From Candidatus Heimdallarchaeota archaeon (GTDB taxonomy: Archaea; Asgardarchaeota; Heimdallarchaeia; Heimdallarchaeales; Heimdallarchaeaceae), in assembly GCA_016840095.1 (NCBI GenBank), contig JAEOSZ010000096.1, positions 1-17,066 on the forward strand: a stretch of DNA of 17,066 nucleotides, in the 5' to 3' direction. The position numbers were made by a program, and so were the translations under genes. The notes below the pieces were generated by a model. The model ran no database searches. It saw nothing but the letters and a program-made list of their open reading frames with translations, and was not told where the DNA came from. Of the stretch, positions 4,012 to 9,256 are shown piece after piece (the stretch's first letter is position 1; every line of letters starts with the position of its first letter).

Positions 4012-4998
4012 TTATTTCTCTTCTTCTTCATCTAAGTTTTTATCCTTTTTCAATAATCTTGAATCTAAGATATCTGGTGGAATATATACATATCTTCCAC
4101 CTTCATGTCTTATATCTACTTGAGATACTAAATGCAGCTTTCTTTGAACTTCTTCTTGTGTTTGTCTCGGTCCATAATAATCTGTTCTAGGACGTTTTCT
4201 TCTTTTATTTTTCATTCTTAATGAAATAAGAGCAATGATAGATACAATCAGAACTATCCCCATAACTGCATCTCTTAGTTTAAGACTCAAACGAGAGTTG
4301 AATTCAAGAGAAATTACAACATCATGAATGTTATTATCAAGAGGCTCAAAAGCAAACCAATCATATCCATGTTCAAGAATAAAGAATCGAATACTAGAAT
4401 CAGTCCAAGAAAATGAATAAGCTGTTTCTTTCCAATTTATGTTCTTTGTAGGATCTTTCTTTGACGAATAGAACTTCACAAATCCATTATTTTCAAGAAT
4501 TGAGAGACTCAATGTATAGTTTCCTCTATCAAGGGTTTTGACAGAAATAACTGTAAGAGAAGTGTTCAATACCTTTTGTTGCTTGCTCCAGTTTTTTTGA
4601 GATAAAAAGTAATAACCCCCTTCATCTCTTTCTTGAAGTAATTCACTGTTTAAATCAACATTAATGTTTAACTCTAAGCCATTAGGATTAAAAATAATTA
4701 CTTCGTAAAACCCTTCCCAGATGAAATCAAAACTAATATCTCCAATTACATTAAATCTAGAAATGAGAATGAAAAAACTTGCATTATGAACGATGACACT
4801 ATACTCAAGAGAAGGATTTAGAACATTAGTCTTAATAGTAATCAAACTTAGCTCATCTTCAGTGATTTCAAAAGACCATGAATCATAAGCAGGTATATCT
4901 ACTAAAATTGAGTGATCGTATTCATTTTGGTTTTCTATAGCTTGGGTTGGAACTAGACACAAACTAAAAACAAAGAAAAGAAACCAGATTTTTTTCAT
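4012..4998 (-). CDS. Uncharacterised type I single-pass membrane protein (signal peptide, beta-rich ectodomain, TM, basic cytoplasmic tail)
   Basis: MKKIWFLFFVFSLCLVPTQA signal peptide; sequons NAS, NWS, NTS, NYT; TM AVMGIVLIVSIIALISL followed by RMKNKRRKRPR. Confidence 0.8.
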   Translation of the reverse strand: MKKIWFLFFVFSLCLVPTQAIENQNEYDHSILVDIPAYDSWSFEITEDELSLITIKTNVLNPSLEYSVIVHNASFFILISRFNVIGDISFDFIWEGFYEVIIFNPNGLELNINVDLNSELLQERDEGGYYFLSQKNWSKQQKVLNTSLTVISVKTLDRGNYTLSLSILENNGFVKFYSSKKDPTKNINWKETAYSFSWTDSSIRFFILEHGYDWFAFEPLDNNIHDVVISLEFNSRLSLKLRDAVMGIVLIVSIIALISLRMKNKRRKRPRTDYYGPRQTQEEVQRKLHLVSQVDIRHEGGRYVYIPPDILDSRLLKKDKNLDEEEEK

Positions 4999-5032: not shown

Positions 5033-5053
5033 CTCAAGGAAAGAACAAAAATT

Positions 5054-6841
5054 TCAATCATTGAAGAAACAGTCGATATTATCCTTCAAGATTTTAACAG
5101 AACTGTGCCTTTCGAAACTGAATTCTTGGGAGAGTTTAGTTCCTCTAGGGTCCAACAATATGTGAACTGCTCTATCTCCTTTATTTCGAATAGCTCTACC
5201 TAAGCTTTGTGCGAGTCTTTGAACCATTGGGATGAATATAGTGAAATCATTGGCTATTTTGGAACCAAACTGAACTGTAAGGTCTTCATGGATAATCTGA
5301 TTTTCTTGAGAAGGTGGTGGATAAGGCAAAGCTGTTACAATTATGCCTTTAATCAAACTTCGACCATCAACAGAAAATTCTACTCCTTCACTAATTTTAC
5401 CTCCAGTAACGCACAGAATCAGCTTCTTCTCTGTAGAACTAGCTATAATTGCTTGTAAAGTAGTTATATCTAGTTCATTTGTTTCCACAATGTCTGCATT
5501 TAGTACTCCTGCATCTACTAAATCTTCCATGTATTTGTAGCTAGGAGCAAAAACCAATGTGTGTCCTTTAATTGACTCAAAGATTTTCTGTATTGTGCTA
5601 GAAATTAACACAAAATATTCGTGTGTTCTGTTATCATGTTTTCCATTCAATTTCTGATTAACAAGTATGTAGTTCTTACTCTCAATATCCTCTTTAGGAG
5701 AAAAGACTCTAAGTGTTTTTGAGTTAGATAGCTGGAAGATTTGCTTATAGGACCTTAATGGTTCAAAACTTCCTGACATTAAGATTAATCTTTTAGTTTC
5801 AATAAATTTCCTCAAAATATCGGAAGGTTGGATGTTTACTATTGATAATTTATTACCATCAGAAAGGAGTATTTTATCTTGAGAAGAAAGAAGAAAATGA
5901 TAAACTAAATAAGCATAAAAAGCTGGAGGACTATTACGAACTAATTGTCTTTGAAGTAAAGAAAATAACTCTTCTTCTAGTGATTTTAACTTATATTCAT
6001 CATAGTTTTTAGTAATTACCTCATGTCTATCAATAGTGTCTAAAAGTTCATCGTAAATAGGATGAGATAATTCTTTAGCTGCATTCTCAATGAGTGATTT
6101 GGAAATCGATTGATTGATTGGTTTATACAAATTATGTGCTTCATCTACAGCTACAAGTGTTTTTTCTAATCTAGAACCAATACTATAGAAGAATCGAGTA
6201 AACAAAGCAGTATTTTCTAGAAAGGGATAAGATGTAATTATGACATCAGCCTTTTGCATTAGAAAATATGAGAAAAAGTATGGACAGTAATTATCAGAAT
6301 TCAAACTAGTAAGAATGTCATCTTTTGAAATAATGCTTGTAAAAGATTCATACAAACGTTTTACAGATTCTAAGATATCCTCTGTTGTAGCTCTCTGAGT
6401 TTTAGCCTTAAGAGGGCATCTAGTTAGATTGCAGATATGAGTATAGATTTCACTAGGATAATCCTTTTTTGCTTTCAGACATAACTCATTCTTCCCGAGA
6501 AAAGGAACAAATATAGGAAAATTCTCAAAATGATCTTCTAGTAAATCCCAGTGTTTAACAATTTGATTGAAGATGTTAGAAAGTTCTCGTAAAAAGACAT
6601 TAATCTGAGCTTTGGTTCTTACGTAGACAACTATTTTTTCATCCTTCTTCTTTAGAGCTAACAGAGATGTAAGTAAAGCAGCAGTTTTCCCAACTCCTAT
6701 CTGGGAGGAAATGAGTAAAGGTTGAGATGAAGAGAGAATTGAACGAATTATTCTTCTTTGAGGAGCTTTCATTGTTGTGTAGGGAAATAGTATTTTAGCA
6801 ATTTCCCAACTTTCTTCAGCTTCTTCATTAATTTGGTACAA
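5054..6841 (-). CDS. XPD/Rad3/DinG family SF2 FeS-cluster DNA helicase
   Basis: Q-motif FPY...PQ, Walker A QIGVGKT, Ia VRTKAQI, four FeS Cys (GKNELC, HIC, TRCP, YCPYF), VDEAHNL, MSGSF, FAPSY, GGKISEGVEF, LPYPPP, QSLGRAIRNKGD, LLDPR. The annotated start is a TTG overlapping the upstream gene by 14 nt; the true start is uncertain. Confidence 0.92.
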   Translation of the reverse strand: MYQINEEAEESWEIAKILFPYTTMKAPQRRIIRSILSSSQPLLISSQIGVGKTAALLTSLLALKKKDEKIVVYVRTKAQINVFLRELSNIFNQIVKHWDLLEDHFENFPIFVPFLGKNELCLKAKKDYPSEIYTHICNLTRCPLKAKTQRATTEDILESVKRLYESFTSIISKDDILTSLNSDNYCPYFFSYFLMQKADVIITSYPFLENTALFTRFFYSIGSRLEKTLVAVDEAHNLYKPINQSISKSLIENAAKELSHPIYDELLDTIDRHEVITKNYDEYKLKSLEEELFSLLQRQLVRNSPPAFYAYLVYHFLLSSQDKILLSDGNKLSIVNIQPSDILRKFIETKRLILMSGSFEPLRSYKQIFQLSNSKTLRVFSPKEDIESKNYILVNQKLNGKHDNRTHEYFVLISSTIQKIFESIKGHTLVFAPSYKYMEDLVDAGVLNADIVETNELDITTLQAIIASSTEKKLILCVTGGKISEGVEFSVDGRSLIKGIIVTALPYPPPSQENQIIHEDLTVQFGSKIANDFTIFIPMVQRLAQSLGRAIRNKGDRAVHILLDPRGTKLSQEFSFERHSSVKILKDNIDCFFND

Positions 6842-8597
6842 GATTCTTCCTTCCTTCTAAATTATTGAAAATAGTTTTAGCTCTCTCTTTTGGAAAAATT
6901 TCAACTAGCTCTTTGAATGAAAGCTGATTAATGTGTTTCATTTTTTTCTCATCTAATAGAGCAGAAATACTTACTGCTTCTTGATAGGTGCAATTAGCTA
7001 AAAACTGAATGTAATTTGCTTTTTTCTCATCTGTTTCTGTTGGAGAAGTTTTTACATTGATTTGACTTCTTCTATTGTCAGATAGTGATTTTGCTAGATT
7101 AACAAAAGCTTTAGTTCTAGAATTCATTTTTTCTTCTATGTTTTTATTGAAGATAACTTGTTGATTCTGAACTAGTTTCTGTTGTACTTTTTCATCCTTA
7201 ATTACTTTCAGAACAGATTTTTCTCTATTCCGATATTTATGGAAAACTCTTTCTTCTTGAGACCTATGAGTTATCAGGAAGTAGATTTTTGATTGATTAC
7301 TTCTAGCTTCTAAGAATGTTTCATACTTAGTTGGAGTATTGAAGAATATTATTGCATCAGCTTCAGTCTTTACAAAATGAGAAGCTAAAATGACATCTAC
7401 ATCTCCTGAGTCAAAAATCTGTTTGAGTTTTGCTCTTTCTTTTGATTGACTTCTTGGAAGAATCTTACTCCTTAATCCAATTTCTTTGAGATATTTTGGA
7501 AGCTGAGAAAGGATATTTTTGTGATTAGCAACTATGTAGAAATTCTTGTAATTCAGTTTGTTTTTCATTTGATTAATTAGTTGCTTGATCCTCTCAAACT
7601 TTGGATGAATAGTGGATTCAGATAGAGTAATCAAATTATCATAAATCTCCTCAAAAACAGGTGTTCGAGCAAAACTACTGATTTTCTTGATATTCTTCTC
7701 AGTATTTTCTTTATCTCTTTTTCTCAATTTCTTCATATAATCCAAAGCTACTTTTGGACCTGAAGCTTCAACTAATTCTTTGATCGAAATGAAGTTGATG
7801 AGTTCAATAGCTTTCCTAATCAAAACTTGCTGTTCATCAAAGTCGAATTTTGTTTTCAATCCTTGAACAAAACCTCGAAAATCTTTTCTTACAGCAAGTG
7901 GTCTTTCAACTCCTTTAGCTTTCAGAAAATTCTGATATTCTCTGATGAAACGATTGACTTCAAAACAGAAATTGTACATTTCTTTGTTAATTGGAACAGT
8001 AATTACATCCTCACGAGATGTAAAAGAATGATCAAAAGGTTGAGAGCTAGGTTCGATATATTCGATTTTTGTTATGAGTAAATTCTCACATACCTCTATT
8101 AAGGAATTAGTATTCTGGAAAATATATCTAGTCAAACCAATATTTCTTATGAGAATTTTATTGTTCAGAAAAACTTCCATTAGTTGAACAGATGAATGCT
8201 TTCCCTTAGATAAATGGGCATCGAAAAATAGGAGAACATGAAAATCAGAGGGAGAGGTGATTTGCCTCAAAATATCGTTTCTAAGCAGTTGAGGGGTTAT
8301 TGCAACTATTTGAGATTCTTCATAGTTTTTTGTTCGTTTTTCAACAGGATATGTAGAAATTATATGACTTAGCTTGTAACCTTCTAGCTTGTCCTTTAGA
8401 TCTCTGAATTGATTCCAGGTTTCAGATTTATTCAGAATAATTGCTACTTTCTTTGAGTCATCCTTCTTTAGAAAATATTTGATTAAAACCTCCAAAATTG
8501 AATTGATGGAGAAGTTAACAGGATATATTAACAGAGTGTTATCTTTAACAGCTGTACCTAGAATCACTTGTGTGTAAGTATCAATATTTTCTTTCAT
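6828..8597 (-). CDS. Hef/FANCM/XPF-family helicase-like protein, predicted catalytically inactive, no ERCC4 nuclease domain, putative C-terminal HhH
   Basis: Colinear with archaeal Hef: NTLLIYP, VEKRTKNYEESQIVAITPQLLRNDIL, LLFFDAH, IGLT, EVCENLLITKIE, helical insertion, HPKFERIKQLI, FDSGDVDVILAS, IIFFN, IYFLITHRSQEE. Walker A, DEAH and motifs III, V and VI are degenerate. The last ~65 aa resemble the XPF (HhH)2 region. Confidence 0.78.
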   Translation of the reverse strand: MKENIDTYTQVILGTAVKDNTLLIYPVNFSINSILEVLIKYFLKKDDSKKVAIILNKSETWNQFRDLKDKLEGYKLSHIISTYPVEKRTKNYEESQIVAITPQLLRNDILRQITSPSDFHVLLFFDAHLSKGKHSSVQLMEVFLNNKILIRNIGLTRYIFQNTNSLIEVCENLLITKIEYIEPSSQPFDHSFTSREDVITVPINKEMYNFCFEVNRFIREYQNFLKAKGVERPLAVRKDFRGFVQGLKTKFDFDEQQVLIRKAIELINFISIKELVEASGPKVALDYMKKLRKRDKENTEKNIKKISSFARTPVFEEIYDNLITLSESTIHPKFERIKQLINQMKNKLNYKNFYIVANHKNILSQLPKYLKEIGLRSKILPRSQSKERAKLKQIFDSGDVDVILASHFVKTEADAIIFFNTPTKYETFLEARSNQSKIYFLITHRSQEERVFHKYRNREKSVLKVIKDEKVQQKLVQNQQVIFNKNIEEKMNSRTKAFVNLAKSLSDNRRSQINVKTSPTETDEKKANYIQFLANCTYQEAVSISALLDEKKMKHINQLSFKELVEIFPKERAKTIFNNLEGRKNLVPN

Positions 8598-8700
8598 TTA
8601 GAATCCTTCTAATGAATACTTTCAGAGATGTATTTACACTATTATGACCAAAATGGCTTATAAAGTGATGAAAATTTCCAAGATTGTGTAATCATTTTCT

Positions 8701-8715
8701 AGAAATCTTTTTATC
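8701..8715 (+). promoter_or_regulatory. BRE/TATA-like promoter element for the Cys-rich membrane protein gene
   Basis: AGAAA followed by TTTTTATC (8708-8715), starting 30 nt before ATG 8738; supports 8738 over 8684 as the start. Confidence 0.45.
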
Positions 8716-8737
8716 TGCTTGTATATGTGTTGTCTTT

Positions 8738-9256
8738 ATGGAAGAAGAAAAGCCTTCTAAATCAGATCCATCTGAAGAACCAGTTCAACCCCCATATCAA
8801 CCCCCATATCAACCTCCAGAACCCATTCAGCCAGAATATCAAGGTCCAGAATTTCAAGGCCCCCCTTATGCTCCTCCGCCTTTAACTGAAGAAGAAAGAC
8901 GTAGAAAGAGAAGACGTAGAATAATCATTATTATATCAATTGTTTTTGGTGGATTAGTAGTTTTAGGGTTAATTGGAATAGGAATAATATATGCAATTGG
9001 ACAATCAATATCAGCGGTTTGTCAATCTATGTGTGCAAGTTGCACTTGTGATTGTGGCTGCGATGAAGCATGTAATAATGCCTGTACTAATAGTTGTAAC
9101 AGTTGTGGTGATAACTGTAGTAGTGATTGTTGTAGTTCAGGTAGTGGAGGATCAGGTGCTGGTGGGGCAGGTGGAATTGAATCTATTGATATAAAAACAT
9201 ACTTCAAATATCTTTGGCAGTACATAGAAAATTGGTTCAGGAATTTCTTCCCTTAG
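8738..9256 (+). CDS. Uncharacterised Pro-rich / TM / 13-Cys membrane protein with C-terminal aromatic amphipathic helix
   Basis: 172 aa from ATG 8738: acidic/Pro-rich N-terminus (QPPY repeats), RRRKRRRR, long hydrophobic TM, 13 Cys in 38 residues (9020-9133), Gly/Ser linker, tail YFKYLWQYIENWFRNFFP. Confidence 0.8.
   Translation: MEEEKPSKSDPSEEPVQPPYQPPYQPPEPIQPEYQGPEFQGPPYAPPPLTEEERRRKRRRRIIIIISIVFGGLVVLGLIGIGIIYAIGQSISAVCQSMCASCTCDCGCDEACNNACTNSCNSCGDNCSSDCCSSGSGGSGAGGAGGIESIDIKTYFKYLWQYIENWFRNFFP
8785..8814 (+). repeat. 12-bp in-frame tandem repeat (TCAACCCCCATA x2.5) encoding QPPY
   Basis: tcaacccccata tcaacccccata tcaacc read directly from the sequence. Confidence 0.85.

Follow-up and report, generated by a model that had tools for sequence, protein, structure and literature searches.

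The window analyzed here, a 17,066-nucleotide (nt) stretch of contig JAEOSZ010000096.1 from a Candidatus Heimdallarchaeota archaeon of the family Heimdallarchaeaceae (assembly GCA_016840095.1), carries on its minus strand two overlapping genes, the upstream one encoding a catalytically dead paralogue of Hef (dead Hef, P0001) and the downstream one a divergent XPD-family iron-sulfur (Fe-S) helicase (the XPD-like helicase, P0002). Both genes are real, vertically inherited and under purifying selection, and they exist in addition to the canonical Hef and the canonical XPD of the same genome. We infer that they constitute a two-gene operon of the Heimdallarchaeaceae, in which P0001 and P0002 are co-transcribed and translationally coupled. 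The two proteins probably work together in a putative complex; more specifically, and at a probability that we place near 0.45, dead Hef would assist the XPD paralogue in fork repair or recombination as a partner without catalysis of its own, binding DNA or acting as an adaptor. A first-pass annotation of this DNA had presented the pair as undescribed, and the literature that we searched indeed held no description of it. Window coordinates are positions within the 17,066-nt stretch; g1 denotes the genus of the window, g10–g13 further genera, f1 the Heimdallarchaeaceae, and f2, f6 and f7 other families.

The upstream gene encodes a Hef-derived pseudo-helicase

The sole significant family match of P0001 is the NCBIfam Hef model NF010337 (E 9e-28; 96.8 bits against a cut-off of 610), and Pfam returned only a sub-threshold Helicase_C match, with neither ERCC4 nor HHH. 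A profile built from the dead-Hef family retrieves the helicase domain of P. furiosus Hef (1wp9, E 3e-29) and next FANCM. Likewise, a Foldseek search with the AF2 model of P0001 (predicted local distance difference test, pLDDT, 79.5) recovered the 1wp9 Hef helicase (E 1e-22), the FANCM translocase (9el5, TMq 0.64), RIG-I and MDA5. The helices of the insertion domain, which is well conserved across the genus, occupy residues 205–328 of this model, a region covered by the structural matches to 1wp9 and FANCM.

Upon alignment to the canonical Hef of the same genome, P0001 was found to carry PVNFSIN in place of PTGLGKT (motif I), FDAH in place of DEAH and LTRY in place of TASP; motifs V and VI fall within deletions, and the entire ERCC4 nuclease domain is deleted. 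The glutamine of the Q-motif (Gln10) and motif Ic (TPQLLRND) are still present; the earlier statement that no ATPase motif is kept is therefore true of the catalytic motifs only. Walker A is absent from every member of the dead-Hef family, the distant members being equally dead, and, because the catalytic motifs are lost in 15 of 15 aligned members across five genera, the inactivation predates the split of these genera. Judged from its sequence, P0001 is a Hef-derived pseudo-helicase with two RecA-like lobes that lack ATP-binding and hydrolysis motifs; the Hef model match, the Hef fold and the motif loss together bear out the first-pass description of a dead Hef-type pseudo-helicase.

The last ~70 residues of P0001 were modeled with a pLDDT of 85.8 and appear to adopt a fold like that of a tandem helix-hairpin-helix domain, (HhH)2, in which the hairpin GhG motifs are degenerate. 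An exhaustive VIA-align comparison of this tail with 48,161 chains returned NusA AR (Z 7.3), FAAP24 (4bxo_B, Z 6.7), the P. furiosus Hef HhH domain (1x2i_B, Z 6.6, root-mean-square deviation 2.8, 63 aligned), FANCM (9hjo, Z 6.2), and XPF (2kn7) and ERCC1 (Z 6.0), all of these Z-scores being middling (<8). The consistent (HhH)2 picture comes from VIA-align alone, as Foldseek gave nothing significant for the tail (E ~1) and hhalign against canonical Hef tails gave no profile match (probability 0.2%).

Selection was assessed as the ratio of nonsynonymous to synonymous substitution rates (dN/dS) by the Nei-Gojobori method. Dead Hef yields values of 0.07–0.17, with 0.115, 0.118 and 0.168 for the three unsaturated pairs, compared with 0.04–0.085 for the XPD-like gene, 0.07–0.085 for canonical Hef and 0.12–0.15 for the neighboring DegV gene; dead Hef is thus similar to DegV and slightly above canonical Hef. 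Over 20 genomes carry the gene with an uninterrupted frame, at identities down to 25%. On these sequence comparisons, dead Hef is a functional gene kept by purifying selection.

The downstream gene encodes a motif-complete XPD-family helicase

Pfam detects DEAD_2 (55.5 bits, cut-off 21) and Helicase_C_2 (78.3 bits, cut-off 25.3) in P0002. Under the ‘rad3’ model TIGR00604 the protein scores 132 bits, below the 247 cut-off, which places it outside the orthology limit for repair XPD. Its best PDB matches are the archaeal XPDs 3crv and 4a15 (E ~1e-26, ~90–95 bits), ahead of Rad3 (60 bits), CHL1 (58 bits) and FANCJ (9ej9, 42.5 bits). The label ‘XPD/FANCJ-type’ given in the first-pass annotation is therefore retained for the XPD family and dropped for FANCJ, at 42.5 bits versus 95 for archaeal XPD. 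Walker A, DEAH, motif VI and the four Fe-S cysteines, all of them listed in that annotation, proved invariant in 15 orthologues (Thr53 of Walker A nearly so; Table 1). The four cysteines line up with the four Fe-S cysteines of S. acidocaldarius XPD (3crv), the cluster being predicted from sequence. In a test for the Arch domain, Pfam HBB scored 23 bits against a cut-off of 30, and the region can be aligned to 3crv. P0002 is, by its motifs, a divergent, motif-complete XPD-family Fe-S helicase that looks active. Separately, one frameshift close to codon 90 divides the XPD-like gene of genome G004 (L036:7250-7800, G004:C98), whose dead-Hef neighbor is intact; this could be an assembly error or a recent inactivation.

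Both canonical counterparts, whose presence the first-pass annotation had proposed to check, are found elsewhere in the genome. Canonical Hef (contig C63) comprises 832 amino acids (aa), scores 868 bits on NF010337 and 102 bits for ERCC4, and ends in an (HhH)2 tail; a canonical Hef with this tail was present in every Heimdallarchaeaceae genome examined for one. Canonical XPD (contig C45) passes the TIGR00604 cut-off of 247 at 333 bits and matches T. acidophilum XPD at 203 bits and human XPD at 127 bits. A third XPD/DinG-family helicase of the genome (L011:28-1854, G000:C77), cut by the contig end, matches PDB 9kqh, ‘DNA 5'-3' helicase’, at 440 bits. We also observed a 542-aa superfamily 2 (SF2) helicase (L003:1459-3087, G000:C143) with a weak resemblance to the Hef helicase region (72 bits).

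A conserved overlap probably couples the two genes

The co-oriented minus-strand arrangement with a 14-nt overlap, as first annotated, was confirmed for both open reading frames (ORFs), and it recurs in genus-mates and in a second genus. Across g1 and g10, a GAAGGAAGG core lies just upstream of a conserved TTG start in 10 of the 11 junctions compared, and at the conserved junctions the dead-Hef stop lies 14 nt downstream of the first TTG base. The tail-less G021 orthologue departs from this: a short gap separates its two genes, and another purine-rich element stands at the junction. We infer that the purine-rich element (GAAGGAAGG, in the window GAAGGAAGGAAG) serves as the ribosome-binding site (RBS) of the XPD-like gene and couples its translation to that of dead Hef. 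The same purine run encodes an invariant EGRK near the dead-Hef C-terminus, and, since the codons GAAGGAAGGAAG double as the RBS-like element of the next gene, EGRK may be constrained at the DNA level. That the region after the TTG is coding follows from its first 23 residues, which are conserved in orthologues, unlinked ones included. Overlap, GAAGGAAGG and TTG have all been kept even though the dead-Hef proteins of g1 and g10 are only 33% identical.

The recurrence of the overlap in relatives, the conserved junction sequence and dN/dS values well below 1 for both genes place the arrangement beyond chance. Junctions and dN/dS likewise bear out a genuine pair, co-oriented, under selection and probably coupled in translation, of a Hef-fold protein that is dead and an XPD-family Fe-S helicase whose motifs are complete, and to that extent the first-pass interpretation. 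Upstream of dead Hef, a TATA-like element (Table 1) would, from its sequence and position, be the archaeal promoter of the two-gene operon. A similar C/T-TTTWTAAG-YCATTTT element occurs at the same distance in genomes G013, G008, G001, G016 and G042, and no TATA-like element was seen at that position in the G007/G005/G017/G002 subclade.

Dead Hef is confined to one family and paired in two genera

Within g1, dead Hef was found in 14 of 24 other genomes and the XPD-like gene in ~17 of 24, and every contig that holds both has them side by side; the same applies to g10, including genome G043, where the pair sits at a contig edge. A family profile detected dead Hef in each of the five Heimdallarchaeaceae genera sampled, and the other families of the order yielded none. 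In a sample of 400 genomes of the phylum, the Heimdallarchaeaceae dead Hefs reached 588 bits or more, and nothing else exceeded 179. A search of 1.84 billion representative proteins brought up only 11 dead-Hef clusters, below which scores fell from 344 to 194 bits, the level of ordinary Hefs. Each of the five genera, with two closed genomes among them, has both genes, and the overlap is restricted to g1 and g10, which are sister genera on the dead-Hef tree. By comparison, a ~600-aa XPD paralogue that is nearer to P0002 than canonical XPD is can be found in almost every family of the class, from which it follows that the XPD paralogue predates dead Hef and is independent of it.

Seven genus-mates contain neither gene and are scattered among the carriers on the canonical-Hef tree (at least five changes). 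When five of these seven genomes were searched for DegV, four held distant relatives only and one held none, which suggests that these genomes are missing the syntenic DegV copy as well. Absence of both genes from these genomes (76–90% complete) is likelier to reflect assembly gaps than loss, and their joint absence is uninformative as to function because adjacent genes vanish together anyway. In Heimdallarchaeum, 491-aa and 317–323-aa neighbors of XPD-like orthologues were considered and found to be unrelated to dead Hef. A transposase fragment precedes dead Hef in genome G046 (g13).

Proposed function and competing explanations

In the mechanism that we propose, dead Hef would bind branched or damaged DNA via motif Ic, the insertion domain and the (HhH)2-like tail, and would target, load or modulate the 5′-3′ XPD-like motor in fork repair or recombination, the pairing having arisen once in the ancestor of the two sister genera. 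A complex prediction that combined the full XPD-like helicase with residues 196–589 only of dead Hef scored 0.24 (mark 0.32) and weighs neither way on binding.

Several observations weigh against this mechanism. Genera g12 and g13 (two closed genomes) keep both genes, but at a distance of 24–30 kb. Dead Hef likewise has no XPD-like neighbor in g11, GCA_054001415 and two metagenomic contigs, where the genes are on different contigs or non-adjacent, or where the contig holds no XPD-like gene. Because dead Hef and the XPD-like gene are unlinked yet retained in these other genera, co-transcription must be dispensable there, and the XPD paralogue can evidently work alone, as most families having it are without any dead Hef. 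Furthermore, the (HhH)2-like tail is absent from the orthologues of G021, g11 and g12, dead Hef in g13 (Ca. Heimdallarchaeum) is followed by a Rad51-family gene (L052:7579-8670 (+), Pfam Rad51 2e-51), and no fused dead-Hef/XPD protein was found among proteins longer than 1031 aa, which is weak evidence. The first-pass annotation had regarded adjacency found only in this lineage as speaking against a working pair, and the distribution goes about half that way, with adjacency in two genera of one family and both genes unlinked but retained elsewhere.

The main alternative, which we regard as possible though doubtful, is that the two proteins, whether or not they share a pathway, form no stable complex and that the overlap in two genera means co-expression only. 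Dead Hef would then act alone as a fork or branch binder, or as an (HhH)2-mediated partner or antagonist of canonical Hef, by analogy with the pairings XPF-ERCC1, FANCM-FAAP24 and Mus81-Eme1. Such independence is consistent with selection on dead Hef even where it is unlinked from the XPD-like gene, with the heterodimerizing (HhH)2 domains of FAAP24, FANCM, XPF and ERCC1 that stand beside Hef HhH among the top matches of the tail, and with the tailed canonical Hef available as a partner throughout the family genomes examined for it. It is also consistent with the other neighbors of dead Hef, namely the Rad51-like gene in g13 and, in g12, a 343-aa AAA/KaiC-like ATPase gene (L047:6703-7734 (+)) that overlaps dead Hef by 8 nt; the Rad51-like orthologue lies 13–48 kb from the pair elsewhere, and plain collinearity is possible. 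Since g11, g12 and G021 lack the tail, however, (HhH)2 pairing is not a universal function of dead Hef, and the retention of overlap and RBS-like element at 33% protein identity suggests that co-production matters.

A second explanation would make the adjacency meaningless, the product of a rearrangement in the ancestor of two genera followed by inertia within conserved synteny. The whole 15-kb neighborhood is indeed syntenic within the genus, the XPD-like gene stands beside the same aldehyde-dehydrogenase gene in other genera where dead Hef is missing from that place, and dead Hef, XPD-like and Rad51-like genes fall within ~50 kb of one another in several genera, which could be collinearity. 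We nevertheless find this explanation unlikely: an overlap with a conserved start and a purine-rich element is a derived and maintained feature, and when genes for two members of DNA-repair helicase families come to form an operon, neutrality is an unlikely cause.

The pair could also be an anti-virus module, with a DinG/XPD-like helicase as effector and a RIG-I/Dicer-fold protein as sensor, an alternative raised in the first-pass annotation. What speaks for it is the match of P0002 to the PADLOC model PDLC01439 (‘typeIV_DinG’, 184 bits), the sharing of the Hef fold by RIG-I and MDA5, and a report of type IV CRISPR-Cas in a branch of the Heimdallarchaeaceae (PMC13700489). That match, however, is generic, since housekeeping paralogues score higher on the same model (canonical XPD 324 bits, the DinG-like helicase of the genome 434 bits); the Csf4 model TIGR03117 gives P0002 13.5 bits against a cut-off of 400, and P0001 matched no PADLOC model. 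No cas genes, CRISPR array, integrase, mobile or other defense genes were found near the pair. Its neighbors are syntenic housekeeping genes (DegV, EamA, PAC2 and 2-hydroxyacid dehydrogenase), and the locus is vertically inherited, with a composition that is not island-like; the G+C content of the window is ~32%. A defense role thus gained no positive support and is very improbable. Lastly, the notion of a decaying pseudogene, to which the loss of all catalytic motifs and the nuclease and the faster evolution of dead Hef relative to its XPD-like partner might point, is scarcely credible and is refuted by frames intact in more than 20 genomes (to 25% identity), by dN/dS of 0.07–0.17 and by a confident AF2 model.

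Feature coordinates and flanking genes

The positions of all features are collected in Table 1. Immediately downstream of the pair, 4012-4998 (-) codes for a 328-aa protein with a signal peptide, N-glycosylation sequons, a C-terminal transmembrane anchor and a basic tail; the product evolves fast (26–36% identity) and has no Pfam, NCBIfam or PADLOC match. As a third gene of the module it was rejected, being an unrelated surface protein that lies downstream of the XPD-like gene only in some genus-mates and is absent in the closest. On the other side, the divergently transcribed ORF 8684-9256 (+) encodes a Pro/Gln-rich, Cys-rich membrane protein and is syntenic with the pair in several genus-mates.

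Table 1 Features of the window around the dead Hef/XPD-like gene pair (res, residues)
Feature	Position	Strand	Basis or remark
Gene, catalytically dead Hef paralogue P0001	6828..8597	-	ORF, 589 aa, ATG start
Gene, divergent XPD-family Fe-S helicase P0002	5054..6841	-	ORF, 595 aa, TTG start
Overlap of both genes, 14 nt	6828..6841	-	TTG 6839-6841 inside last dead-Hef codons; dead-Hef stop 6828-6830
RecA1-like lobe of P0001, res 7-185	8043..8579	-	Alignments and model secondary structure; Walker A/DEAH replaced
Hef/FANCM/RIG-I-type helical insertion domain of P0001, res 196-330	7608..8012	-	All-helical between lobes in model
RecA2-like lobe of P0001, res 331-445, motifs V/VI deleted	7263..7607	-	Alignment and model
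C-terminal helical stalk of P0001, res 446-511, THRSQEER and NQQ motifs	7065..7262	-	Best-conserved part of dead-Hef family
(HhH)2-like tail of P0001, res 521-585, degenerate hairpins	6843..7037	-	Structure search; missing in some orthologues
Walker A of P0002, GVGKT, res 49-53	6683..6697	-	G49, V50, G51, K52 invariant, T53 nearly (15 orthologues)
Fe-S domain of P0002, Cys121/Cys137/Cys142/Cys186	6284..6481	-	Invariant in 15 orthologues
Motif II of P0002, DEAH, res 233-236	6134..6145	-	Invariant in 15 orthologues
Motif VI of P0002, QSLGRAIR (QSxGRAIR), res 545-552	5186..5209	-	Q545, G548, R549, R552 invariant, 15 orthologues
GAAGGAAGGAAG, Shine-Dalgarno-like and EGRK codons	6846..6857	-	4 nt (G-run 7-8 nt) before XPD-like start
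TATA-like TTTATAA, putative operon promoter	8658..8664	-	~60-67 nt upstream of dead-Hef ATG; read from sequence
AGAAGGA, purine-rich, putatively Shine-Dalgarno-like	8604..8610	-	6 nt before dead-Hef ATG
T-rich tract, possible archaeal terminator	5038..5053	-	Just after XPD-like stop, before surface-protein gene
Tandem repeats, short, in-frame (12-15 nt, 2-3 copies)	8785-9127	+	Inside ORF 8684-9256

Second Hef copies in other families of the class

Three other families of the class (f7, f2 and f6) also contain second Hef copies. That of f7 is full length, with helicase, ERCC4 (~100 bits, with GD..VEYK) and (HhH)2 (L081:12956-15364 (-), L083:12757-15213 (-), L085:2319-4694 (+)), and it lies 9–10 kb from a ~610-aa XPD paralogue, in convergent orientation, in six genomes. 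The gap consists largely of a gene for a 1704-aa Ig-like surface protein, and an RFC/Rad17-like AAA+ gene is located directly upstream of the XPD paralogue. The f2 copy, P0062 (790 aa; G025, L077:3575-5947 (+)), retains GMGKT, DEAH and QRMGRTGR intact; its ERCC4 domain is undetectable, with the catalytic GD/ERK residues replaced, and its HhH tail is kept, a FANCM-like architecture. It is convergent with, and ~0.5 kb from, the counterpart of that XPD paralogue (L077:6444-8207 (-)), which heads an operon-like row of several small genes. A specific affinity of P0062 to FANCM was not found, its FANCM-to-Hef score ratio of 0.60 being the same as that of canonical Hef. The f6 copy is degenerate.

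In a quick maximum-likelihood tree, a branch with SH-aLRT 81 separates canonical Hefs from the dead clade and the second copies, long branches being a concern. This topology is compatible with one old ‘Hef2’ lineage that would cover the second copies and the dead clade. The further step, in which a dead Hef/XPD heteromer (a pseudo-enzyme supplying branched-DNA recognition to an Fe-S 5′-3′ motor) would be the endpoint of a Heimdallarchaeia series of Hef duplication and decay through f7, f2, f6 and f1, we judge improbable.

Discussion

Among known systems, the closest to P0001 is archaeal Hef itself (P. furiosus 1wp9, 1j23 nuclease and 1x2i), the best match in both sequence and structure, with which it shares the two RecA lobes and the helical insertion and which its (HhH)2-like tail resembles. 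It differs in length (589 aa versus ~830), in the loss of Walker A, DEAH, motifs III, V and VI, and ERCC4, and in being an extra copy beside the canonical protein. P0002 in turn shares with archaeal XPD (3crv, 4a15/2vsf) the SF2 DEAH core, the four-Cys Fe-S domain in HD1 and a similar length; unlike canonical XPD (203 bits), it reaches only ~90–95 bits, and it belongs to a separate ~600-aa paralogue lineage and is coupled to a pseudo-helicase.

Characterized archaeal XPDs have been studied as monomers. Dependence of an Fe-S 5′-3′ helicase on a non-enzymatic subunit is familiar from XPD-p44/MAT1 in TFIIH and from E. coli YoaA-chi (HolC), where the likeness is one of concept only, those partners being unrelated in fold to Hef. 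Similarly, the inactive C-terminal cassette of Brr2 is a pseudo-helicase module that regulates an active helicase. Here too the likeness is conceptual, in that the Brr2 cassettes form one polypeptide of the same Ski2-like family, whereas the present pair comprises two polypeptides from two SF2 families.

Hef-derived pseudo-enzymes are a hallmark of eukaryotic repair (the dead helicase domain of XPF, the dead nuclease of FANCM, ERCC1, FAAP24 and EME1), and to our knowledge none has been described in archaea so far. Eukaryotes are thought to stem from the archaeal class that contains the Heimdallarchaeaceae, and the first-pass annotation had suggested a prototype of eukaryotic scaffolded repair. 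Dead Hef does resemble the inert modules of the eukaryotic XPF family in being derived from Hef, with a decayed catalytic part kept as a scaffold and an (HhH)2-like tail similar to those of FAAP24, FANCM, XPF and ERCC1. Unlike them, it is confined to one archaeal family and has no specific sequence affinity to FANCM, and we know of no eukaryotic XPF-family protein that combines a dead helicase with a fully deleted nuclease. Further points against ancestry are the limitation of the overlap to two sister genera, the failure of P0062 to stand nearer to FANCM than canonical Hef does, and the distance of P0002 from FANCJ; nothing specific ties the pair to the XPF/FANCM scaffolds of eukaryotes. We therefore favor parallel evolution over ancestry as the better fit; the pairing would be a lineage-specific innovation that parallels the eukaryotic dead XPF-family modules rather than being their ancestor.

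What the window presents is a copy of Hef with a dead motor and no nuclease, held under purifying selection in a family of the eukaryote-related archaeal class. If P0001 and P0002 bind, no archaeal XPD-family helicase before P0002 would have had a non-catalytic subunit of its own, and the pair could serve as a manageable two-protein system for studying how active helicases are steered by inert helicase folds. Should they not bind, the series of Hef paralogues in the Heimdallarchaeia still informs the diversification of XPF, MUS81 and FANCM; on the improbable reading set out above, and provided that all these copies belong to one paralogue lineage, the series would provide an archaeal precedent for, or even kin of, the subfunctionalization that yielded eukaryotic XPF, MUS81, FANCM and their inactive partners.

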